Part shown: positions 3,202 through 42,018 of the stretch, one piece after another
How the letters are laid out: the number at the start of each line of letters is the position of its first letter
Position numbering within the stretch: the first letter of the stretch is position 1
Source: Promethearchaeota archaeon
GTDB lineage: Archaea; Asgardarchaeota; Lokiarchaeia; Sigyniarchaeales; SOKP01
DNA: 64,000 bases
Assembly (NCBI GenBank): GCA_019057865.1
Contig: JAHLWP010000007.1
Span: forward strand, 1 to 64,000
Reading direction: 5' to 3'
The notes under the pieces: generated by a model
The model's database searches: none
The model's input: only the letters and a program-made list of their open reading frames with translations
What the model was told of the DNA's origin: nothing
Program-made: the position numbers and the translations under genes

Positions 3202-4029
3202 ATGGGATTTACACCTTTCAAGGATTCCTATAGATATCTTAATTTTTTAATCATTTTTCTTCTAACACTATTGTTACTTTATCTGATTATCCCCCTGTTT
3301 ATTTCGGGCACTATAAAGATTTGGGTAAATATTAGTGAATTAGATGGAGCAGCAGGTTACTTCTCTCTAAAAATAGGAATGATAATGGAAATTATTTTAA
3401 TGGGTCCGGTGTTTGGAATCATTTATTATTTCCTTATGAAAAGTTTAATTAAAAATGTTGATGAAAACCAAGGAAGGAATAAATATGTGCTATATTTCTT
3501 AGAAATAGGGGTTCTATTATTCATCAATATTTCTGTCATGGGACATATAGTTCATTTACTATTTGATTATGGAAATTGGATTTATAGAGAATCAAATGTA
3601 ATGGATACTAGCCAACTTTATTTATTTCTATATTATTCTGACGAGTGGCTCGGGCATCATCTCATTCACATCGCTTTTTTTGGGTATATTACTTTAGCTT
3701 TAATAACTGAGTTTATAGGTCAAGAACATAGAAAATTAAATTCAGATGAGTTGATTTATACAATTGCTTCAGGTGTTGGTCTCAGCGTGGTTTTCAGTTA
3801 TTACACATATGAAGGTCAAGCTGCTTTTATGATCTTTATTTTATTTATTTTACTATTAATCATTGAAATTATTATTCTCTTTATAAAGAAAATAAATCCC
3901 TTAGAGCGACCGATACTGTTAGCTACAATAATTACTTCAATAGTAGTAATTATATTTTTTATATGTTGGATTATTCTATTTGGTATTAAGCCATATTATC
4001 CTTTTGTTTATCAACCATCTGAATTATAA
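3202..4029 (+). CDS. Multi-pass membrane protein with CLN6-like motifs
   Basis: About 7 hydrophobic segments; motifs MGHIVHLLFDYGN, LYYSDEWLGH, YEGQ and C-terminal YPFVYQP. Confidence 0.6.
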   Translation: MGFTPFKDSYRYLNFLIIFLLTLLLLYLIIPLFISGTIKIWVNISELDGAAGYFSLKIGMIMEIILMGPVFGIIYYFLMKSLIKNVDENQGRNKYVLYFLEIGVLLFINISVMGHIVHLLFDYGNWIYRESNVMDTSQLYLFLYYSDEWLGHHLIHIAFFGYITLALITEFIGQEHRKLNSDELIYTIASGVGLSVVFSYYTYEGQAAFMIFILFILLLIIEIIILFIKKINPLERPILLATIITSIVVIIFFICWIILFGIKPYYPFVYQPSEL

Positions 4030-4104
4030 TCTTTCTCTAGAAGAGATTATAATTTATATATAATTAGAAGAAAATTATTAAATTATAAGTTCTTTAATGA
4101 AATT

Positions 4105-4815
4105 ATGAGAAAGGAAGATCTATTTAACTCTTATAATTCTGAATTTCTAAAGAAAGCTGGAATTGAATTTAAAAAACCAGAAAAAACTGACATAAAAAAT
4201 ACAAATGTCTTTAAAACAGGAACTACTACTGTAGGATTGATATGTAAAGATGCTGTAATTCTAGGAACAGATAAAAGAGCATCAATGGCATATTTTGTTG
4301 CTAGTAAAATTGCTGAAAAATTATATAAAATTCAAGATCATCTTTATATGACAATTGCAGGTACTGTAGCTGATGCTCAATATCTTATAGATGTTTTACG
4401 TGCAGAAACCAATATATACCAATTAGTACATGACGGTAGGCCTATTTTAGTTAAATCTGCTGGGAAATTATTATCCAATATCTTATATCAAAACAAAATG
4501 TTTCCCTTTGAAGTGGGACTTATTCTAGGAGGTGTTACAGAAGAAGAAGGTCCTACTCTTCTGGATATTGGTGCTTATGGTTCAATTCTACCAGAGAAAT
4601 ATTGTGCTATTGGAAGTGGGCAAAATTTCTCATATGGTGTCTTAGAAGCAAAATATAAAGATAAATTATCTATCAAAGAAGGTAAAGAAATCATTATATC
4701 AGCAATATCAGCATCTATTATTAGAGATATGGCTAGTGGAAATGGTATAGATATTGCTGTTGTTAAAAAAAAGGGTTCAGCAAAAAGACAATTTATTCCA
4801 ATAAAGGAATCATAA
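4105..4815 (+). CDS. psmB: Proteasome subunit beta
   Basis: Propeptide followed by KTG|TTTVG, DKRAS, GSG, RDMASG. Confidence 0.95.
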   Translation: MRKEDLFNSYNSEFLKKAGIEFKKPEKTDIKNTNVFKTGTTTVGLICKDAVILGTDKRASMAYFVASKIAEKLYKIQDHLYMTIAGTVADAQYLIDVLRAETNIYQLVHDGRPILVKSAGKLLSNILYQNKMFPFEVGLILGGVTEEEGPTLLDIGAYGSILPEKYCAIGSGQNFSYGVLEAKYKDKLSIKEGKEIIISAISASIIRDMASGNGIDIAVVKKKGSAKRQFIPIKES

Positions 4816-5049
4816 TTAAACCTATTTTTCTGTATTATTTTGTTTTTATCTCTTCTCCTGCTATTTAAATATTATGTAAAATGAAACTTTAAATAGAAGC
4901 TTTATAAAAATCTTTATAAAAATAAATATCTTTATAAAAATAAATTACAAATTATAAAGTTAGAAGAAATAACTCGTTATAGAACTTAGATAGAACATTT
5001 ATAAACATTAAGAATTGAGCAAGAATTGAATCGTGGAGTGACGCCAAAA

Positions 5050-5778
5050 ATGAGCTACAAAATAATAGTAGACTTGTCTCATAAGGAACAGGTTGAAGAA
5101 TTTCCTGAGTTCTCTTTAGGAGAAAATGATTATGAAGTTGAGTATATAGACAAGAACGAGGGACCAATAGAATTTGATATACTTGAAGATTTTGACGTTT
5201 TATTTATTGGTAATATCAAAGCTACTCAAGATGGAAAAGCTGATAAGTTTACGCAAGCTGAATTACTTGCAATTAAGAAATTTATAGGGGAAGGTGGAGG
5301 GTTGTTTCTAACTAGTGGAGATGGAGGAGATAAAGATATCACTATGAAGCAAGGTTCAATTAGAGTCTTGTATAAAATAACAGGCGTACGAAGATTTTGG
5401 AATGGTATTATACATGAAGCTTCCTCAAATTTTCTGGTTAATCGAACTAATTTATTAGTTACAGAACTGTTTAACCATCTTATAACTAAAGGAGTAACAG
5501 AGGTAGTTCTTCCAAATTGTACTTTCTTTACAATTTCCGAAGAAGATGTGGAAGATATTATTCTAACCTCTGAAAAATCTGAATTTAAATATTATGTTGA
5601 TGATGATGTTGGCGTTCTTGGCCCAGTACCGGTATGTACGGTTTCAGAATTCTATAATGGTAGATGTGTTAGCATAGGATCCTCAGATTGGATGAGAGAA
5701 GATTCTGATTTTGGATTAGATGCAGGAGATAATTTGAAGTTCCTCTCTAATATCATTGAATGGTTATCTTTCGATTAA
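5050..5778 (+). CDS. GIFT (GldG/IFT52-like) class-I GATase-like domain protein
   Basis: IIVDLSHKE, FTQAELLAIKKFIGEGGGLFL, GRCVSIGSSD, DNLKFLSNIIEWL. ATG 5050 follows GGAGTGA (track uses TTG 5026). Confidence 0.65.
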   Translation: MSYKIIVDLSHKEQVEEFPEFSLGENDYEVEYIDKNEGPIEFDILEDFDVLFIGNIKATQDGKADKFTQAELLAIKKFIGEGGGLFLTSGDGGDKDITMKQGSIRVLYKITGVRRFWNGIIHEASSNFLVNRTNLLVTELFNHLITKGVTEVVLPNCTFFTISEEDVEDIILTSEKSEFKYYVDDDVGVLGPVPVCTVSEFYNGRCVSIGSSDWMREDSDFGLDAGDNLKFLSNIIEWLSFD

Positions 5779-5802
5779 TTATAATTAATCATTTGAATCA
5801 AT

Positions 5803-6915
5803 ATGGTTTTTAAACTTTTTCGTCCGGACTCGAATTCCGTTTGGGAAAATGAAGAAATTATTAAAAGATATTCAAAATATAAAGGTATTAAAGAAGGTAC
5901 AAATTTAGCAAGATATTTAATTGCTAAAAGTCTTGAATGTGAATTTAATTCTGATGATAGCATTGAAATTCTAGAAAAACTGTTAAAAGAAAAATCTAAG
6001 GAATTTAATGAATTAATAAAAAAAGATACAGAAGAATTAAAAAGTCGAAATATTGCTGCTATATCATATATTGATTTAGCTGAGAATATTGCAAGAAAGT
6101 ATCTTGAAAGTTGTATTTTCTGTGAACGTCAATGTAAAGTTAATAGAATTGATGGAGAAAAAGGATTTTGTTTAATAAATAAAGATTCATACGTTTCTTC
6201 AGCTTTTCTGCATATGGGTGAAGAAAGTGTATTGATACCAAGTGGTACAATTTTTTTTCAAGGATGCAATTTTGGATGTGTTTTTTGTCAAAATTATGAT
6301 ATTTCTCAAGCTTGGAAAGGTCAGAGAAATATTGAAGATGTTGCCCAAAAAGTTTCTATTAAAGAATTGGCTACTATTGCTGATAAGTTAGTAGATAAAG
6401 GCGCTATAAATATTAATTATGTAGGAGGCGATCCCATACCAAATATTCATACTATAATTGGAAGTCTAAAATATCAGCAATCTAATATCTGTCAGTTATG
6501 GAATTCTAATTTCTATCTAACTAATGAGTCATTATCATTAATTATAGATTTTATAGATTTCTGGCTTCCAGATTTTAAGTATGGGAACAGTAAATGTGCC
6601 AAGAAGTATTCTGGTATAGATAATTATTTCGATATCATTGCCAGAAATCATAATAGAGTCCATGATGAGGGAAGTGGAGAAATTTGTATAAGGCACCTTG
6701 TAATGCCCGGGCATATTGAGTGTTGTAGTAAGCCAATTTTGGACTATGCTAGAAAAGAATTACCGAAAGCGGTCTTCAATATTATGGGACAATATCGTCC
6801 ACAATATAAGGCTTTTCAATATGAAGAAATAAATAGAAGACCTACATCCCAAGAAATAAGAGAAGTAAAAAATTATGCTGATGCGTTAGGAATTCTTTAT
6901 AAGCCTGTCTCATAA
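5803..6915 (+). CDS. Radical SAM protein, PflX-like (PFL-activating enzyme related)
   Basis: CIFCERQC; GTIFFQGCNFGCVFCQNYDIS (CxxxCxxC); RHLVMPGH; MGQYRP. Confidence 0.9.
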   Translation: MVFKLFRPDSNSVWENEEIIKRYSKYKGIKEGTNLARYLIAKSLECEFNSDDSIEILEKLLKEKSKEFNELIKKDTEELKSRNIAAISYIDLAENIARKYLESCIFCERQCKVNRIDGEKGFCLINKDSYVSSAFLHMGEESVLIPSGTIFFQGCNFGCVFCQNYDISQAWKGQRNIEDVAQKVSIKELATIADKLVDKGAININYVGGDPIPNIHTIIGSLKYQQSNICQLWNSNFYLTNESLSLIIDFIDFWLPDFKYGNSKCAKKYSGIDNYFDIIARNHNRVHDEGSGEICIRHLVMPGHIECCSKPILDYARKELPKAVFNIMGQYRPQYKAFQYEEINRRPTSQEIREVKNYADALGILYKPVS

Positions 6916-7005: not shown

Positions 7006-8133
7006 ATGTCTCTTGAACTAAACGATGTAAAAGGTATTGGGAAAAAAATCGATGTTTTAAAAGAAGCAGGAATTGATTCAGTTGAAAAATTAGCAGGAGC
7101 TAAATTAGAAGAGTTAACTGAAATAAAGGGAATTGGAAAAGCTACAGCAGAAAAAATAATTGATAGTGCAAAAGAGTTATTTAAAAGCTCAAAAAGTAGT
7201 TCAACAGAAATCATAAAAGAAGAAAAATCTGAATCAGTTGAATCTGAAGATGAAGAGAAAAAAGTTCTAGAGGAACTTAAAAAATTAGAAGAAAAGAAGA
7301 ATAAACTCCAAGATAAAAAGGTTGAAAAAGGCGATTTTATACTAGTTAAAATTACAGGTAAAACTCAAAGAGGTAAAGTTTTTAGAGTATCATCTGAAGA
7401 AGATGCAAAAACAGCAGGTATATATGATGAACAAAAAGCAAAACAAGGATTTTATTCTCCAGACTTTGTTATTGTCAGTAAACCAGGTTTTCTAAATGAG
7501 GGACTTACTGAAACAATAGAGAATATGAATTATTTTGAGAAAAAATCTGTAAGAATACCTCCAACAAAAGCATTTGGAAAAAGAGATCCAAAAAAAATTG
7601 AAAGAATAGGAATTGCTAAATTTAGAAAATTAAATGAAGGTAAAAATCCTGAAATTGGACAAGATTTTACTAAACAAACTCAAGGACAAGTGCAAAGGGG
7701 GACAGTAACGAGTGTTGTACAAGGAAGAGTTATTGTTGATTATAATCATCCATTAGCAGGTCAACTTTTAGATTACAACATAGAAGTTATTGATAAAATT
7801 GAAGATTTTAATGAAAAAATAGAATATTTTATGATTAGTAAAGGAATTCCAAAAGAAGATGTTGAAAATTTTGAAGTGAGTCATGACATAACAAATAAAA
7901 CTCTTGAGATAGTAATTCCAAAAAGTTTTCTATTTCAGAATTTAACTTATTTAAAATTTGGTTTGGCTATGGATATTCAAACTTATATGTCTGATGAAAT
8001 TGGCGATGTGAAGTTTATCGAGATTTTTGAAAAAATTCCAATTCCCCCAACTCCTTCAGAATCAGTAAAGCAAAAAATTGATGATTATAATAAAGAGAAA
8101 GAAAAAGAGAATAATGACGAATCTAAAATTTAA
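7006..8133 (+). CDS. Helix-hairpin-helix domain fused to long-type archaeal FKBP peptidyl-prolyl isomerase
   Basis: VKGIGKK and IKGIGKATAEKI HhH motifs; IPPTKAFGKRD and VDYNHPLAGQ FKBP/SlyD motifs. Confidence 0.85.
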   Translation: MSLELNDVKGIGKKIDVLKEAGIDSVEKLAGAKLEELTEIKGIGKATAEKIIDSAKELFKSSKSSSTEIIKEEKSESVESEDEEKKVLEELKKLEEKKNKLQDKKVEKGDFILVKITGKTQRGKVFRVSSEEDAKTAGIYDEQKAKQGFYSPDFVIVSKPGFLNEGLTETIENMNYFEKKSVRIPPTKAFGKRDPKKIERIGIAKFRKLNEGKNPEIGQDFTKQTQGQVQRGTVTSVVQGRVIVDYNHPLAGQLLDYNIEVIDKIEDFNEKIEYFMISKGIPKEDVENFEVSHDITNKTLEIVIPKSFLFQNLTYLKFGLAMDIQTYMSDEIGDVKFIEIFEKIPIPPTPSESVKQKIDDYNKEKEKENNDESKI

Positions 8134-8159
8134 AAATCTATTCCAATAAATCTTCTAAT

Positions 8160-9128
8160 TTAAGTAATTTTAACTTTTGTTACTAATTCTTGTTTTTTCT
8201 TTGCCTTTTCCTTTTTATATTCCTCTTTCTTTTTCTGATAAAAAGCTCGCTTACGTTGAAATTCCAGTCTTCTTCTTAGGGATTTTTTCTTCTTTTTTAG
8301 ATATTCCTTTTTCGCTTTTTTATATTCTTTTTTTGCCTTTTTATATTCTTTTTTTTTGGTTTTATATTCCTTATATTGTTTCTTAATCTTGTGACGAAGA
8401 TCCTTACTGATTTCTCCTATTCCTAATTCTTTCAACTGTCTTTTAAACTTTTCAAATGATTCAAATCTTAAAACTATAATACCTAATTCCCTTGCAGGAA
8501 CTAAATTTTGAATTTTATCATCAATAAATATACATTTTTTAGGAGATGTATCTAATTTTTTTAAAACATATTTATATTTATCCATATCGGGTTTAATTAA
8601 GCCAATTTCATTAGATAAAAACATGTGATCAAAAATATCATAAAAACCTTTTAATAAATTTGATTTAGCATGAATATCAAAGGTATTTGACATTAAACTA
8701 ATAGTATAATCTGCCTGATGTAAGCGTTCTATTACTTCTGCCATTTCGGACGAAATATTAGTAACTTGAGAATATAGATCAAACCATAACTCAACATAAT
8801 ATTCGGCATTTACCTTTTTTGGAGGTAGAGCACCATCTTGTTTTTGAGAAGGATAATAATATTTCTCGAAAATTTTTTCTAAAAACTCTCTCGCAGAAAT
8901 CCTTCCAGAACTAAGATTTCGCCTAATTTTTCGCAAATATGAATCCCCAGACCGTTTAATAGTAATATTTAAATCAGATTGTATTATATCAAATAAATTT
9001 TTTAAAACAAAGGTTTTTTCAATCATTACACCCCCAAAATCAAATATAAAATGCTTAATTTTATAAAGTCTAACCTTTTGAGTTTTTCCAAATATCTTAT
9101 AAGTTTTTAATTCTTCTGGTGTACTCAT
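8160..9128 (-). CDS. HAD-family phosphatase with Lys-rich C-terminal tail
   Basis: FDFGGV motif I, MSNT, KPD, FIDD; about 80-aa KKEYKKA-repeat tail. Confidence 0.85.
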   Translation of the reverse strand: MSTPEELKTYKIFGKTQKVRLYKIKHFIFDFGGVMIEKTFVLKNLFDIIQSDLNITIKRSGDSYLRKIRRNLSSGRISAREFLEKIFEKYYYPSQKQDGALPPKKVNAEYYVELWFDLYSQVTNISSEMAEVIERLHQADYTISLMSNTFDIHAKSNLLKGFYDIFDHMFLSNEIGLIKPDMDKYKYVLKKLDTSPKKCIFIDDKIQNLVPARELGIIVLRFESFEKFKRQLKELGIGEISKDLRHKIKKQYKEYKTKKKEYKKAKKEYKKAKKEYLKKKKKSLRRRLEFQRKRAFYQKKKEEYKKEKAKKKQELVTKVKIT

Positions 9129-35471: not shown

Positions 35472-36908
35472 ATGTCTTTTGTAAGAAAAAATGATACTGA
35501 TAAAAAAACGTCTTTCGGAGTAATAGTTGGAAATAGAGATGTCTTTCCTGATCATTTAGTAAAGGAAGGTAGAAAAGATATTATAGACGTAATGAACGAA
35601 TTAGAATATAAATTTGTTATTCTAGATGAAGAAGATACTCCTCTAGGAGCGGTTGAGACATATTCAGATGCGAAGAAATGTGCAGAACTTTTTAAAAAGA
35701 ATTCTGATAAAATTTTAGGTATAATTTTATGTCTTTGTAATTTTGGAGATGAGAAAGCCGTAGCCAACACTATAAAATTATCAGAACTTGATGTTCCAAT
35801 CCTAATACAAGCATCATCAGATGATATAAACAAAATGGATAGGTCCTCTAGAAGAGATGCTTTCTGCGGAAAGATTTCAGTAACGAGTGTGTTATATCAA
35901 TATGGAATTCCTTTCACTCTTACTTCAAATCATACATGTGTAATTAAATCTGATGAATTTAAGAAGGATTTAATACGATTTGAGAAAATTTGTAAAGTTG
36001 TTAGGAAAATTAGAAGGGCTAGGTTCGGACAGATCGGTACTCGACCTAATGCATTTGAAACCGTGAGATATAGTGAAAAAATTCTTGCATTTAATGGAAT
36101 TTCTATCGAACTTATCGATTTATCTGAAATTTTAGCAGCAATTCAAAAATTAAAAGATGATGATCCTAAAGTTAAAGATAAAATTGAATTCATTAAAAAT
36201 TATACTCCCACTAAAGAATTCCCTAAGGATGGGTTATTAAAATTAGCTAAATTGGCTGTGATCGTTGAAACTTGGGTTCTTGAACTTGACTTAGATGGAT
36301 TCGCCTTTCAGTGTTGGCCTTCTATAGTTTCTAATTTCGGCATCGTCCCATGCGCGGTCATGAGCATGTTTAGTGAAGGGTTGGTACCTGCTGCTTGTGA
36401 AGTTGATATCTCAGGATTAATTGGCATGTATATTCTTCAAGTAGCTACTAATACCCCTTCTGCGATTGTCGACTGGAATAACAATTACGGAGATGATCCT
36501 AATAAAATGGTATTATTTCACTGTAGTAATTTACCCAAATCGTTCTTTCAAGATACCAAAATGACGGTCCATCCTATTATGGCAGAATACGATGGCGAAG
36601 AAAATACATTTGGCGCGATACAAGGAAAGATTAAGACGAAACCTTGTACAATGCTCAGAATAGAAACCGATGATATTTTTGGAGAAATAAAAGCAATAGT
36701 TGTAGAAGGAAAATTTACTGATGATCCTCTTGATACATATGGAGGATATGGTGTCATTGAGATTCCAAATTTACAAGAATTACTAAAGAAATTATGTCGT
36801 AGTGGATTTGCTCATCATGTAGCCGTTTCCCTAAATGAAGTTGGAGATATTGTTTATGAAGCTCTATTTACTTATCTCGGATGGGATATAGATTTCTTTA
36901 ATAAATAA
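35472..36908 (+). CDS. L-fucose/L-arabinose isomerase family protein (3' part probably element-derived)
   Basis: NFGDE, RRDAFCGKIS, FQCWP, AACEVD, FHCSN, GFAHHV. Confidence 0.88.
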   Translation: MSFVRKNDTDKKTSFGVIVGNRDVFPDHLVKEGRKDIIDVMNELEYKFVILDEEDTPLGAVETYSDAKKCAELFKKNSDKILGIILCLCNFGDEKAVANTIKLSELDVPILIQASSDDINKMDRSSRRDAFCGKISVTSVLYQYGIPFTLTSNHTCVIKSDEFKKDLIRFEKICKVVRKIRRARFGQIGTRPNAFETVRYSEKILAFNGISIELIDLSEILAAIQKLKDDDPKVKDKIEFIKNYTPTKEFPKDGLLKLAKLAVIVETWVLELDLDGFAFQCWPSIVSNFGIVPCAVMSMFSEGLVPAACEVDISGLIGMYILQVATNTPSAIVDWNNNYGDDPNKMVLFHCSNLPKSFFQDTKMTVHPIMAEYDGEENTFGAIQGKIKTKPCTMLRIETDDIFGEIKAIVVEGKFTDDPLDTYGGYGVIEIPNLQELLKKLCRSGFAHHVAVSLNEVGDIVYEALFTYLGWDIDFFNK

Positions 36909-36957
36909 ACCATTTTCATCTTCATTTTTCTAATTAAATAATGCAAGCTTGAATCTA

Positions 36958-39582
36958 TTAATCAGGATATATATTTTCTTTTAAATAATATCTAAAATAC
37001 CAATACCAAAATTCAGGCTTTTTACAGTTTGAATTTTTTTGCCTAAATAAATCCATATCTCTTAAAAGTAGCTTATAATGATAATTATAAAAATTCGGAT
37101 AAAAATTTTTATAGAACTCTTTATCTGATAAGATTTTACGTGCTTTCCATCTTTTAATCCACTCTTCGATTAATTTTTCAGGAAACTTATTCCATATCTT
37201 AATCTCTTGGCCATCAATCAATATAGTCTCCTTTTTAAATTCCGATTTAATTATATGATCATAATTTTTACGAATATTGTTAATATTTAGTATTCTATAA
37301 AGATGTTTCATTCGAGCATTCAACAACACTTTATTCTTGTTAAATTCCTCTTTATATGCATGAATCTTCCAATGAGATTTTGAAGCAAGAAGTATTATTT
37401 TAAATGTGAAATCCGAAGAATTGTAATCAAAGATTAAATAATATTTCTGATCTTCATCCAGATGATGGCGTGTTATATAAAGCACATATCGCCCCTTTAT
37501 AATTTGACCATCCTTAGTGACAAAAGGATGTGCATCCTCTATAAAATCTTTATCATAAACATCCAATCCTAAACTTAGATCTAATAGTTCTTTGCGCTGA
37601 ATACCTCTTAAATCAATAAAGTGTTTTTCATACACCCTCCAATGTGGATTATTGATATGTGTCTTAATCCTATATATAGCATTATGACATGCTCCAGGAG
37701 CTTTAAAGAATCCTTTTCTAATTTCTTTAATTAATCTTGTACCCTCAGTTTTAGCTAAAATATATCCATTTCTAAACTTGCCAGTAAGAAAATCTCGAGA
37801 ATTTGTTTTAGAAATCAATCTACTTAAATCTGTATAATCATAAACAAAATCACTATTCTTATTACTTCTTCCTCTTTCTATCTTAGTTAACGCTAATAAT
37901 GAATGGATTACAATATCAAACAATTCTCTATTATCAGTATTGACTATTCGCCTTGAATATTTCGACTCACATAATTCTTTTATCATATTCCTATTTTTCA
38001 TTTCCTTAAAAATAAGATTACGACATTCCGCTTTAAGATCGCTAATATTCACGCCATCTTTAAAATCAAATCTCTCCTTATTAATCAAATGTATACTAGT
38101 AAGCAAATTGAAATATTTTGCATAATGTTCAGGACCTCCTTCACCCCTTTCCCCTCTTCTATATTCTAAATCAAAAATATATGCACGGCTTTTTCCCAAT
38201 ATTTGTGAGAGCCAAGATTTTCCTCCTCCTCCTTTAATATACTTGTTAAAAACAGAGACTAAAATATTCAGAAAATCTTTATTGTACTTCTTTTCGTGGT
38301 AATCAGTTAAGACTCCCGAAAAAGAATTATAAATCTCAGGATGATTTGAGAAAATTTCTATGTGCTCACATATTTTTTTAAAAGTTGTTGGACGAACATT
38401 CATATCAAGAGGTTTATTCCTTGGTAATTCAAGTTGATACGACCATCTTTTTGCTGTATCTAAACTGATACCCAGAATCTTAGAAATATCAGTTGCGACA
38501 ATACGGTTTTTAAAACGGCGTAGACTTGTTCCTCCTGTGATATTAAGGTTAAGTTTATTTGTTGTGGTTTTCTCAAACTCCACAAGTTCAATCTCACACT
38601 CATAAATTAAATTTATTAAGCTCTTTATCAACTTAGTATCAAGATTATCATTTTTATTATAATTATATATCTTTTTTTTATTGCCGTTATATTTGTCTTT
38701 ATACAAAACTCTTATATCTTCACTTCTTTTTTCTTGTCTTTTAATATCAGATTTAGTAAATTTCATCGTTAATCCCTCAGTATAAAATTCATGATAAGAA
38801 GAAAACCGATCAAATGCAGTTATTTTAGCCTTCTTAATTTCTTTGCTTTCAGGATTCAATCCAAGAAGGCAACGGCATGTTCCAACATTTAGGATTTGAT
38901 CATAATTACTCTTGATTTCTTTTAAAGTCATTTCATACTTATTTTCTGGCGAATTTATGATCTCATTATGTTTTAATATATAGTTTTGCCAATCTCTCAA
39001 ATAATTCTGGAGGCTTTTAGATAGTGCTCGAAGATTTTGATGATCAGTGAGGACTTCAGAATGAGTTCTTAAATGCTTAAGTATCCTCGTATACTGGATT
39101 GTAATTTCATCCATTCCATTTTTAATTACCTTATTCACGAGATTTGGTTTGGAAGTTCCTCCTTTTTTAATTGCTTTAATCTGTTTCTTGGTCAATTGTT
39201 TAAGATACGTATTTGAAATCACATCCATATAACGTGAAACTATGGGCGCTCCCCTTCCCACTGTGATGCAATATACCCATCCTTCTATAAACAAGCTAAT
39301 TTCATCGGGGAATTTTGATTTTACTCCTTCGAGTAATGCACTTGGTGGGAGTCCTGCTTTATCAAACAAGCAAGCTAAGGCAGCATCAACAAAATCACCA
39401 ATCCTTTCATCAACATAGACTAAAGGAATGTGATGTATCTTACATTTTGGATATTTGTCAAAACCTAAGAACCTAAATTTAAGTGGCTTAACTCGTGTCA
39501 TATGTTCGCATCCAAAATTTGGGCAAATTGCTACTCGATCCTCTCCCACGGTTTTCCGTGATACGTTTGTGTATGCCTTCAT
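36958..39582 (-). CDS. 874-aa protein: Zn-binding N-terminal domain, HTH-like middle, HNH-like C-terminal motif
   Basis: CPNFGC...CKIHH; ATDISKILGISLDTAKRW and KSWLSQILGKSRAYI HTH-like segments; RHHLDED...IILLASKSHWKIH. Confidence 0.6.
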   Translation of the reverse strand: MKAYTNVSRKTVGEDRVAICPNFGCEHMTRVKPLKFRFLGFDKYPKCKIHHIPLVYVDERIGDFVDAALACLFDKAGLPPSALLEGVKSKFPDEISLFIEGWVYCITVGRGAPIVSRYMDVISNTYLKQLTKKQIKAIKKGGTSKPNLVNKVIKNGMDEITIQYTRILKHLRTHSEVLTDHQNLRALSKSLQNYLRDWQNYILKHNEIINSPENKYEMTLKEIKSNYDQILNVGTCRCLLGLNPESKEIKKAKITAFDRFSSYHEFYTEGLTMKFTKSDIKRQEKRSEDIRVLYKDKYNGNKKKIYNYNKNDNLDTKLIKSLINLIYECEIELVEFEKTTTNKLNLNITGGTSLRRFKNRIVATDISKILGISLDTAKRWSYQLELPRNKPLDMNVRPTTFKKICEHIEIFSNHPEIYNSFSGVLTDYHEKKYNKDFLNILVSVFNKYIKGGGGKSWLSQILGKSRAYIFDLEYRRGERGEGGPEHYAKYFNLLTSIHLINKERFDFKDGVNISDLKAECRNLIFKEMKNRNMIKELCESKYSRRIVNTDNRELFDIVIHSLLALTKIERGRSNKNSDFVYDYTDLSRLISKTNSRDFLTGKFRNGYILAKTEGTRLIKEIRKGFFKAPGACHNAIYRIKTHINNPHWRVYEKHFIDLRGIQRKELLDLSLGLDVYDKDFIEDAHPFVTKDGQIIKGRYVLYITRHHLDEDQKYYLIFDYNSSDFTFKIILLASKSHWKIHAYKEEFNKNKVLLNARMKHLYRILNINNIRKNYDHIIKSEFKKETILIDGQEIKIWNKFPEKLIEEWIKRWKARKILSDKEFYKNFYPNFYNYHYKLLLRDMDLFRQKNSNCKKPEFWYWYFRYYLKENIYPD

Positions 39583-39586
39583 GAAG

Positions 39587-40192
39587 TTAATCTATCCTCA
39601 AGTTGTTTTTTGATATTTTAATCTTCACTCTTGGTGTGTTTTCTAATAATCTCTCTAATTCCCTTTCTAAACTACTGTAGTTTATTTCAAGTTCCTTATA
39701 AAATTCACTGAATTGTGCGTTCAAGCACTTCTTCACTAAAAATATGTTTTGTGCTAATTTAACTATAAATTTGAGAAATTTTGAATGACGATGAAGGCTT
39801 TCTTCTGAAAAATAATGAAGTAACATGGATAGTTTCTCAGCTATTTCTGAGAGTCTATTCAAGGGAGTTCTACAATTGTTATAAAAGAGAGATTGAATTC
39901 CTTGTTCAAGTGATTGTCCGTTTTTCTTGATTTTACTTAACAAAGTCATGAATTCACGAGTTAATGATTCAATTTCTTGTTTTTGGGTATAAAATGTAGT
40001 GTTTATATCTTTTTCGGCAAAACTTAGAGTGGTTCCAAATCGGTATCTTATTACTTCATTCTTGTAATTGAAAAATGTTCGGAGTTGTCGTGAAAGTTCT
40101 TTTATTTTTCTTACTCCCTCAATCTCATACCAATTATTAAAAATATCATCATATTCTAATTCAATATAATATTCTTCATTATTATCCGTCAT
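39587..40192 (-). CDS. Hypothetical alpha-helical protein, likely co-transcribed with the 874-aa gene
   Basis: 201-aa ORF whose stop lies 4 nt before the next ATG. Confidence 0.7.
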   Translation of the reverse strand: MTDNNEEYYIELEYDDIFNNWYEIEGVRKIKELSRQLRTFFNYKNEVIRYRFGTTLSFAEKDINTTFYTQKQEIESLTREFMTLLSKIKKNGQSLEQGIQSLFYNNCRTPLNRLSEIAEKLSMLLHYFSEESLHRHSKFLKFIVKLAQNIFLVKKCLNAQFSEFYKELEINYSSLERELERLLENTPRVKIKISKNNLRID

Positions 40193-40323
40193 AATTTACT
40201 ATTTTAAACCTTTTACTAACTAATTAAAACATTTATATTTAAACAAAAAATGTTATTTCTAATAATTACAATTTAGAAAAAATACGATAAAATGTCTTAT
40301 ATCCCGCATAAAATATCATTTTC

Positions 40324-40908
40324 TCTAGTTTTGGGATAGTTCCATGTGCATTTCTAAGCATGTTTAGTGAAGGACTTGTTCCAGCGGCATGTGAAGTAGA
40401 TATTGCAGGATTAATTGGTATGTATATTTTACAGATTGCCACAAATACACCATCAGCAATATTGGATTGGAATAATAATTATGGGGATGATCCTAATAAA
40501 ATGGTATTGTTTCATTGCAGTAATCTCCCTAAATCATTCTTTAAAGATACTAAAATTACAATCCACCCAATTATTTCAGACCTCAAGGGTGGTGAAGTCA
40601 GCTATGGTGCTATACAAGGAAGAATAAAATCTGAACTTGTTACACTTTTAAGAATTGAAACTGATGATTTTATGGGTGAAATGAAGGCTATTATTGCAGA
40701 GGGGGAATACACCGATGATGCACTTGATACATTCGGAGGTTATGGTGTGGTTAAAATCCCTAATTTGCAATATTTATTAAAGAAATTGTGTTATGGGGGA
40801 TTTGCCCATCATGTTGCTGCTACACTGAATGAAGTAGGAATAATTGTTTATGAGGCTCTGTCTAGCTATCTTGGCTGGAATGTAGAATTTCACAATAAAG
40901 ATCAATAA
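40324..40908 (+). pseudogene. Orphaned 3' fragment of the fucose/arabinose isomerase gene
   Basis: Reads SSFGIVPCAFLSMFSEGLVPAACEVD...GFAHHV...LGWNVEFHNK. Homology stops abruptly about 40318-40324, with an in-frame TAA at 40309. Confidence 0.85.
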
Positions 40909-40911
40909 ATT

Positions 40912-42018
40912 CTATTTTTTTCTTCCTATTATTATTTCTTTTTCAAAAAAACCAGAATTAATTACTTTTTTATGCTCTTCAGTGAAATTTGTCAATATAT
41001 CAAAAGGTTTTATCTTTAAGGGTGTATAAATACTTTCATTATGGAAATTAAGAATTCTCCTTCTTGATAAATAAATAGAATATGCAGAAATATCGCAACC
41101 TATCCATTTTCGATTTAACTTATCAGCAACTAATAATGTAGTTCCAGAACCACAAAAAAAGTCTGCAATCAAGTTTTCTTCATTAGAACCTAATTTAATT
41201 ATTTTTTCTAGTAATTTATGGTGTTTCTGAGTCGGAAAACCACTCCATTCTTTTGAGGCAGGTTGCATACAAGGAATTCTCCACACATCATCCATTTTTT
41301 TATCGGTTACAATTCGATATTTTACATGTCCATTTTTATTTTTAACATTTTTCAAAACTCCGTTTATCATTTCTCTCATTAATTGTTTTTCTGGTTTTTT
41401 GCGAGGAATTCTTAGCTCATTAAACGTATATTTATTAGATTTGGAATATACTAATATATCATCGTGTGCACGAGGGAGGTTTCTTTTCCCTGCTGAATAT
41501 TTATTATAATAATACCAAATAATATTATTTATAAACCTCTCTTCTCCAAAAATTTCATCTAAGATTAATCTAACATAATGACTTGCATGCCAATCTAAAT
41601 GAATGAATAGTATACCCGTTTGAGATAATAATTCTTTAAAAAGAATTATCCTCTCATAAAGCATTTGCAAATATGAATCTAAATTCTTCTCCCAATGATC
41701 GAGGTATGCGATAGTATTATAAACATTATCATTATCTTTAATTTTAATCTGATAATTAGTGCCTGAAAAGAAAGGAGGATCTATATAGATCAAATCTACT
41801 TTACCTTTGAAGTTATTTAATAAATGATATAAAACTTCTATATTATTCCCCCAAAATAATTTGTTTCTCCATTCTTTCTTATGTAAATTATTTTGGATTT
41901 TTTTTTTATTAACTTCAGGGTGAACTTCAAAAATTTTATAATAATTCAGAAATTTATTTTTTAAATCTTTTAAATTGACTGGTTTTTCCGATTTTTCCTC
42001 CCAAATTAATTTTACCAT
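40912..42018 (-). CDS. N6-adenine/N4-cytosine DNA methyltransferase (beta class), no cognate endonuclease adjacent
   Basis: LIYIDPPF, FPTQKH, DFFCGSGTT. Confidence 0.9.
   Translation of the reverse strand: MVKLIWEEKSEKPVNLKDLKNKFLNYYKIFEVHPEVNKKKIQNNLHKKEWRNKLFWGNNIEVLYHLLNNFKGKVDLIYIDPPFFSGTNYQIKIKDNDNVYNTIAYLDHWEKNLDSYLQMLYERIILFKELLSQTGILFIHLDWHASHYVRLILDEIFGEERFINNIIWYYYNKYSAGKRNLPRAHDDILVYSKSNKYTFNELRIPRKKPEKQLMREMINGVLKNVKNKNGHVKYRIVTDKKMDDVWRIPCMQPASKEWSGFPTQKHHKLLEKIIKLGSNEENLIADFFCGSGTTLLVADKLNRKWIGCDISAYSIYLSRRRILNFHNESIYTPLKIKPFDILTNFTEEHKKVINSGFFEKEIIIGRKK

Follow-up and report, generated by a model that had tools for sequence, protein, structure and literature searches.

In T4-like phages, free-standing homing endonucleases such as Seg and Mob lie between or beside genes, outside any intron or intein, and spread by cleaving the allele that lacks the nuclease, with co-conversion of flanking markers ("intronless homing"). 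The WHO elements of Torulaspora and Lachancea yeasts carry a nuclease gene downstream of a host gene, and each insertion swaps the 3' part of the host gene for an allele brought by the element and displaces the old 3' end downstream, where it is left as a fragment and may decay; the 5' and 3' parts yield conflicting trees, the cleavage site distinguishes sensitive from resistant alleles, and cleavage has been shown experimentally (PMC7282813; 10.64898/2026.08.13.744650). Hybrid genes are also made by the mORFs of fungal mitochondria, e.g., in atp6 of Allomyces and in atp6, atp9, cox2, and nad3 of Glomus (PMC3630166). Homing without an intron or intein has been named as a third category in yeasts only (2020 and 2026), with older examples from mitochondria (PMC7282813; 10.64898/2026.08.13.744650; PMC3630166). 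The current study deals with a stretch of 64,000 nucleotides from a Promethearchaeota archaeon of the Lokiarchaeia (GenBank assembly GCA_019057865.1, contig JAHLWP010000007.1, positions 1 to 64,000), which is referred to as the window. An element of about 4.0 kb (about 36318 to 40319) that occupies codons 283 to 287 of a FucI-like isomerase gene is most probably a splicing-free homing genetic element, whose functional core would be a C-terminal nuclease module of about 570 amino acids (aa) together with the adjacent isomerase 3' end.

The architecture of the locus is directly visible and agrees in every feature with an earlier reading of the window's letters, hereafter the original prediction. 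A full isomerase open reading frame (ORF; 35472 to 36908, plus strand, 478 aa, Pfam Fucose_iso_C) is followed by two genes antisense to it, one for a protein of 874 aa (36958 to 39582, minus strand) and, as its upstream neighbor, one for a protein of 201 aa. Behind them, the last 194 isomerase codons are present again as a stranded copy (40324 to 40908, plus strand), the orphan. This copy begins as abruptly as had been noted, directly past the CWPSI motif, with stops immediately upstream, no start codon at its head, and no internal stop. Its own stop lies 3 nucleotides (nt) from that of a convergent N6/N4 DNA methyltransferase gene, and the original prediction rightly took this for the native gene packing, since the same convergent arrangement is found in the empty alleles of relatives. 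The orphan and the full gene's 3' end share 75% protein identity (tblastx E 5e-107) and 77% DNA identity in their first 125 nt; the two repeats are spaced 3994 nt apart. Between them, 70% of the synonymous but 14% of the nonsynonymous sites differ (pS 0.70, pN 0.14, dN/dS 0.07), which identifies the two copies as long-separated functional alleles. Neither an integrase nor a transposase domain was detected by Pfam in the two proteins of the element, and terminal inverted repeats, of which the original prediction had seen none either, were not found at the element, nor were a tRNA or an Rfam RNA (up to E 1). An intron or intein was considered and rejected on account of the missing Rfam match, the antisense orientation of both genes relative to the isomerase, and the absence of an Intein_splicing domain.

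For the comparison of synteny, 61 related genomes were used; the isomerase is common within the genus. In the following, G000 is the genome of the window, G0xx are related genomes, L0xx and L1xx are compared loci, and P0xxx are compared proteins. The conserved gene order in relatives is GT87, isomerase, methyltransferase, and two coiled-coil genes. Empty alleles, which the original prediction had proposed to look for, were observed with identical synteny of GT87, isomerase, and methyltransferase in at least eight genomes of the genus (G012, G033, G030, G023, G006, G026, G002, and G010), where the isomerase stop abuts the methyltransferase stop. A related nuclease is located at exactly the same isomerase codon in seven further assemblies. 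Full-length relatives of the 874-aa protein (73 to 99% identical) that are convergent to the isomerase stop occur at L048, L049 to L051, L052 and L053, L064, and L119. Those at L048, L049 to L051, and L052 and L053 are 73 to 87% identical, lie between the methyltransferase and the isomerase, and are each accompanied by a 204-aa partner, and at L064 a related 883-aa protein and its partner adjoin an element-type isomerase 3' end on a contig that stops within the isomerase. Nuclease-only relatives (69 to 73% identical), likewise convergent to the isomerase stop, are present at L116 and L118. The family defined by the N-terminal domain (N-domain) of the large protein was detected in just 3 of the 41 genomes of the genus.

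The joint inheritance of the gene end and the nuclease was observed across hosts. The replacement 3' end of G000 is 86 to 91% identical on the amino acid level to the 3' ends at L048, L049, L052, L116, and L118, and the 5' parts at the same loci are 68 to 71% and the methyltransferases 62 to 67% identical to those of G000; for the loci with full-length relatives (L048, L049 to L051, and L052 and L053), these values are 69 to 70% and 62 to 65%, respectively. The sliding nucleotide identity of G000 to the element-bearing loci jumps at about 36290 to 36312, and native sequence switches to element-type sequence at 36309 to 36327. In the 5' part (35742 to 36250), G000 is 88 to 98% identical on the nucleotide level to G012, G030, and G033, compared with 58 to 80% to the element-bearing loci of other lineages. 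Maximum-likelihood trees of the two gene parts are discordant with strong support, as envisaged in the original prediction. The 5' tree places G000 together with G012, G030, and G033, far from a clade formed by the element-bearing loci; in the 3' tree the full copy of G000 belongs to one clade with L048, L049, L052, L064, and G012 (support 100/99), and the orphan is joined to the empty allele of G033 (support 99/98). Orphan and G033 allele are 93 to 98% identical on the nucleotide level over 40336 to 40630, which is the level of the native 5' core. These groupings support the central claim of the original prediction, namely, that the orphan is the original 3' end and that 36330 to 36908 is a replacement carried by the element. 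The same gene contains another mosaic segment at 35532 to 35740, where G000 and G012 are 92 to 93% identical and G033 and G030 show 55 to 77% identity to G000; beyond this block all four agree at about 90 to 98%.

The codons at the junction differ between empty and occupied alleles. The sequence at this position is CWPSI-QD-NFG (CWPSI-QD-NFGIVPC) in each of the 23 unconverted empty alleles; all eight occupied alleles (G000, L048, L049, L052, L064, L116, L118, and L119) have VS, or VF in one case, at the QD codons (CWPSI-VS-NFG in the element). The homology of the orphan to native alleles begins within a few bases of these codons. This distribution suggests that the recognition and cleavage site spans roughly codons 282 to 290 and that the change from QD to VS would protect occupied alleles.

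A conversion tract was found in G012, which is the nearest relative according to the flanking genes (GT87 96%, methyltransferase 93%) and has an empty site. Over about 36312 to 36700 (approximately 390 nt), its isomerase gene is 98 to 100% identical to the element-type end of G000, compared with 93 to 98% in the neighboring native sequence; its junction codons are VS, and past about 36750 it turns native-like, with a tail more similar to the orphan. Judged from these identities, the tract is a scar of conversion or excision, and two histories fit it, i.e., the repair of a break in which an element donor supplied a short tract, or the loss of the element by recombination between the 3' copies. 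Under either history, the empty G012 allele groups with the replacement copy because of its element-type tract. According to the original prediction, a grouping of the replacement copy with empty alleles would speak against replacement, and G012 does group in this way, but it is a mosaic that is native-like on both sides of the tract. At its other end, the G012 gene shows a separate peculiarity. A stranded isomerase 5' fragment (codons 1 to 94, 63% identical) lies beside GT87 (L035, contig C35 of G012, 3662 to 6235), followed by a 2.3-kb insert with an FGE-sulfatase gene, in which no recognizable nuclease was found, and then by the full isomerase, whose first 60 nt or so are 61 to 75% identical between G000 and G012. 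It appears that the gene start was replaced in a separate event.

The observed orphans form a decay series. G000 and L119 have intact orphans, and those of L116 and L053 lack about 47 to 60 codons at the 5' end; about 17 terminal codons are left in L048 and L064, and in L049 no orphan could be detected. The element of L119 is 99 to 100% identical to that of G000 up to 40319; just beyond, the orphan identity falls to 82 to 93% and then to 63 to 70%. The right edge of the element is placed at 40319/40320, since the identity of the two sequences is 100% as far as 40319 and 82% just past it. The element is also younger than its flanks, because it is 99 to 100% identical in G000 and L119 while the orphan and the downstream DNA differ. 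In L119 (1 to 738, compared with 40899 to 42018 of the window) the orphan is not followed by the methyltransferase but by a predicted membrane protein of 153 aa, so that the DNA downstream of the orphan is variable as well.

The C-terminal module (C-module) of the large protein, residues 306 to 874, combines DNA-binding helices rich in helix-turn-helix (HTH) motifs with an HNH-like core (AlphaFold2 model, pLDDT 87). It also occurs as free-standing proteins of about 580 aa, of which two with 581 and 623 aa are located at the same isomerase site (L116 and L118). The two forms at this site, P0017 (73% identical) and P0020 (69%), are accompanied by the same element-type gene end; an orphan is present at one of their loci, and the N-domain and the partner gene are present at neither. 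Since nuclease-only versions hold this site together with the element-type gene end, the C-module is the part that is tied to the target. An alignment of 29 sequences (A3) shows R705-H706-H707 (RHH) of the HNH-like core as invariant and its H737, R757, and H760 as near-invariant, and the model has its strands and helix in the order expected of a beta-beta-alpha metal fold. Residues 320 to 481 of the model weakly match the HNH domains of McrA (6ghc_B; Z 5.1, root mean square deviation [rmsd] 4.1, 92 residues aligned) and Cap5 (7rwk_B; Z 4.8, rmsd 2.7, 89 residues aligned; also 7rwm and 8fm1, with a Cap5 range of Z 4.2 to 4.8). The motif and the weak fold matches suggest, without proving it, that the C-module is HNH-like. 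The Foldseek search against the PDB returned nothing at E < 0.1 for the models of the C-module and the N-domain, BFVD contained no match for the C-module, and nothing significant was found in PHROGs. In line with a nuclease, the group II intron reverse transcriptase P0158 (RVT_1 plus GIIM) has the same module of about 500 aa as its C terminus, in the usual place of the DNA-binding/endonuclease domain.

In contrast to the C-termini, which are unrelated, the first approximately 285 residues of the large protein are conserved throughout the family, with 54 to 88% identity among more than 100 Promethearchaeota proteins. This N-domain consists of a Cys3-His zinc-ribbon-like site (C20, C25, C47, and H50) and a subsequent helical domain (AlphaFold2 pLDDT 86). 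No fold or family match was obtained for it: the wide VIA-align search gave generic helical matches only, and the ESM Atlas fold search stayed at TM < 0.3. The ESM Atlas feature searches yielded no usable match, and PDB sequence and profile searches gave nothing relevant for the proteins of the element. A Pfam census of the C-terminal parts of 83 N-domain proteins detected HNH_3 in nine, LAGLIDADG_3 in seven, Intein_splicing in three, and PD-(D/E)XK and RNase_T in two each. Some family members (P0051, P0063, P0065, and P0109) end in Intein_splicing plus LAGLIDADG_3, the domain pair of the yeast proteins WHO, HO, and VDE.

In most of 52 loci, the large gene is directly preceded by a gene for a homologue of the 201-aa partner (198 to 232 aa), mostly with a 4-nt overlap. 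The partner gene of G000 ends three codons early (window 39583 to 39589; 201 versus 204 aa in relatives), so that the usual ATGA overlap of 4 nt with the large gene becomes a 4-nt gap. About 108 nt beside the partner gene are conserved among the elements at the isomerase site, and about 60 nt (to about 40250) are kept among cassettes at other target genes; this shorter stretch is taken as the leader or promoter. The predicted complex of the partner and the N-domain reached an ipSAE of 0.83 in three runs, a mark that 58 of 80 solved complexes attained, compared with 2 of 110 mismatched pairs, and the best of three controls scored 0.01; at least 85% of the contacts were common to the runs, and the partner had a pLDDT of at least 78. 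The prediction thus supports, but does not show, that the partner binds the N-domain and forms a heterodimer with it. In the tree of the C-module, forms with and without these additional parts are interleaved and two types of the additional parts occur, so that they have been gained or lost repeatedly. The N-domain and the partner are accordingly a separable, exchangeable module. It is conceivable, if somewhat doubtful, that the leader, the partner gene for about 200 aa, and the N-domain of about 285 aa constitute an autonomous, exchangeable chassis that has repeatedly been fused to unrelated homing nucleases. The fusion partners may comprise the HNH-like module, HNH_3, LAGLIDADG with or without Hint, and PD-(D/E)XK. 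Such a chassis might serve nuclease regulation or repair. It may be a second-order selfish module that exploits homing nucleases; alternatively, it may act as a heterodimeric helper, by which the nuclease is controlled or the break is directed into recombinational repair. To our knowledge, it has no counterpart among homing elements.

The original prediction expected the gene pair to recur between duplicated ends of other genes, and this is the case for a minority of the cassettes. Among 36 testable cassettes, 5 have a direct coding repeat at a distance of at most 300 nt from both ends, compared with 0 of 250 random 3.2-kb intervals of this genome; the targets include MFS-transporter and HD-domain genes. 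One more example is found in the genome of the window (L054, contig C60, 5327 to 10760), where a cassette lies between two copies of the first 65 codons or so of an alcohol dehydrogenase gene. Here, a 75-aa stub is located upstream, and a 72-aa ORF downstream is separate from the 322-aa dehydrogenase body; this locus may represent the replacement of a 5' end. L055, also a cassette of this genome, has no flanking repeat. The hexapeptide-transferase genes that flank L056 were rejected as duplicated ends because they are only 35% identical and were taken as paralogues. With respect to abundance, one metagenome-assembled genome (MAG) contains three family cassettes within about 50 kb (L070, L073, and L074 on contig JAHLWS010000078.1), and the MAG E44_bin85 contains at least 10 family copies.

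The isomerase gene end may also have a different occupant in two genomes of the genus. At L038 (contig C11 of G005, 7088 to 8635) and L039 (G031), about 1.6 kb are wedged between the methyltransferase and the isomerase stop. The insert of G005 contains an ORF of 515 aa from no known family that is convergent to the isomerase; it was examined as a relative of the C-module and rejected, as the two proved unrelated in the comparison. It might be another kind of insertion at the same gene end. The features of the locus in the window are compiled in Table 1.

Table 1. Features of the isomerase locus in the window, with coordinates, strand, and the evidence for each assignment
Feature	Coordinates	Strand	Evidence
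Native 5' part of the FucI-like isomerase, codons 1-282	35472..36317	+	5' tree with G012, G030, and G033; nucleotide identity
Element-borne replacement 3' end, codons ~283-478, including the diagnostic V286-S287	36318..36908	+	3' tree, identity, junction codons
C-module of the 874-aa protein, residues 306-874, putative homing endonuclease	36958..38667	-	Stand-alone homologues, AlphaFold2 model
HNH-like core, about residues 685-770	37273..37530	-	Invariant columns, weak fold matches
Lys/Asn-rich linker between N-domain and nuclease module, residues 286-305	38668..38727	-	Family conservation ends at ~285; free-standing nucleases align from 306
Conserved N-domain, residues 1-285, part of the possible chassis	38728..39582	-	More than 100 Promethearchaeota proteins; AlphaFold2 model
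201-aa partner gene, other half of the possible chassis	39587..40192	-	Homologues upstream of the large gene in most of 52 loci
Right-end noncoding region of the element	40193..40319	-	Conserved leader; G000/L119 identity break
Orphan native 3' end, 194 codons	40320..40908	+	Identity to and grouping with the empty G033 allele
Host DNA methyltransferase, right flank, outside the element	40912..42018	-	Synteny in empty alleles; Pfam N6_N4_Mtase

The proposed mechanism starts from a cell in which element-bearing DNA and an empty allele would come together. The nuclease would cut the empty allele near codons 283 to 287, and the break would be repaired with the donor as a template, one end pairing in the isomerase 5' part and the other within the stranded 3' fragment or the conserved genes downstream. 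In the course of this repair, both element genes would be copied in along with the resistant gene end, and the recipient's own 3' end would be displaced downstream as an orphan that later decays. Several observations weigh against this interpretation. The HNH-like motif that the original prediction had noted in the large protein is backed by the invariant RHH and the weak similarity to McrA and Cap5, but these fold matches lie within the chance range of VIA-align, the C-module has neither a Pfam nuclease match, including any HNH family, nor a PDB sequence match, and hhalign against HNH_3-bearing family members aligned a short HTH-like stretch only, without homology to HNH_3. We thus infer rather than observe that the C-module is a nuclease that cuts the QD allele. 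Furthermore, 31 of the 36 family cassettes lack a detectable flanking duplication, which fits the decay of orphans but is no proof of it. The N-domain and the partner may have a recombinase-like role, and the contiguity of the locus is based on assemblies.

Phage 21 and e14 integrate in the icd gene of Escherichia coli with a replacement gene end. A site-specific integrative element of this kind, in which an unrecognized recombinase (the N-domain and partner pair or the C-module) inserts a circle whose phage-type attachment site (attP) carries the isomerase 3' end, would likewise yield a replacement gene end and a displaced orphan, and it could draw on the two proteins without assigned function and on exact matches of 17 to 23 nt inside the repeat. 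In a test for an att core, the repeats were 77% identical over their first 125 nt, and coding conservation accounts for the short exact stretches. Against this reading, Pfam detected no recombinase domain of the tyrosine, serine, or DDE type in the 874-aa or the 201-aa protein, elements with neither N-domain nor partner share the site and the gene end, and members of the family bear classical homing-nuclease domains. Moreover, the element-type tract of G012 without an element and the mosaic orphans are typical of break repair and gene conversion, and we therefore regard integration by a recombinase as improbable.

A non-mobile, polymorphic nuclease effector or defense module in a recombination-prone spot, with the duplicated gene end as a by-product of unrelated recombination, would account for the similarity of a conserved N-domain with highly variable nuclease C-termini to polymorphic toxins and for the many cassettes without flanking repeats. 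It is quite unlikely in view of a single C-module type that is bound to a single insertion codon across diverse hosts, the co-inherited gene end, and the junction codons that track occupancy perfectly. In addition, PADLOC gave no match below E 0.01, and there is no candidate immunity gene downstream, the next gene being the isomerase. Since MAG assemblies can mis-join repeats, an artefact or a local tandem duplication also had to be weighed, and both are very unlikely. An independent public assembly (L119, GCA_019056755.1) shows the same arrangement with 98% nucleotide identity, which argues against the mis-assembly that the original prediction had named as a possible refutation, and the structure recurs in several other MAGs. 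A tandem duplication of the isomerase end in situ was rejected because synonymous sites are saturated; the copies differ at 70% of them and group with different genomes.

A homing element that replaces gene ends has several implications for Lokiarchaeia. Empty alleles, diagnostic target codons, a conversion scar, and a decay series make the locus a well-controlled archaeal case of the third homing strategy. Elements of this type are common in Lokiarchaeia, which are relatives of the eukaryotic host lineage, and their foreign alleles overwrite parts of ordinary genes, resulting in mosaic genes and discordant phylogenies. Since the element is 99 to 100% identical in two genomes with differing flanks, DNA moves between species of Lokiarchaeia, and the element can serve as a marker of this exchange. 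It also draws attention to a large unannotated family of putative nucleases and to a new two-protein module, i.e., to candidates for new sequence-specific nucleases.

With respect to known systems, the features of WHO elements, comprising layout, displacement, decay, tree discordance, and junction alleles, are all found at this locus as well, and cleavage, which is experimental in WHO, is here inferred from sequence comparisons. The proteins are different. WHO proteins are intein-like and HO-related, with LAGLIDADG and a zinc finger, in contrast to an HNH-like module without a Pfam family, and the traits of the WHO/HO/VDE family (Hint, LAGLIDADG, and zinc finger) were not found in the 874-aa protein, which has no Pfam match at all. 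The present element also differs in the fusion of its nuclease to a conserved N-domain and in the small partner protein beside it; it resides in an archaeon, for which no meiosis is known, targets a FucI-like isomerase instead of FBA1, and does not belong to a cluster of successive elements at the locus. The mORFs have the same order of a foreign C terminus, an endonuclease ORF, and a stranded native C terminus, with the native copy closer to the gene of a relative (PMC3630166). However, they are organellar LAGLIDADG or GIY-YIG ORFs that are often in frame with the host gene, whereas the element described here is chromosomal, archaeal, and composed of two genes, with the nuclease gene antisense to its target. 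With Seg and Mob it shares a nuclease gene outside introns and inteins and, by analogy, a spread that may be driven by cleavage; the phage elements are normally intergenic and leave no duplicated, stranded gene end, and hosts and protein families differ. In the literature found, the replacement of gene ends was reported from yeasts and fungal mitochondria only, with no report from archaea. The novelty assumed in the original prediction therefore applies to the nuclease, the N-domain, and the partner, which are undescribed, but not to the strategy as such: the element most probably represents a known kind of mechanism, of the WHO and mORF type, that is realized outside the WHO protein family.

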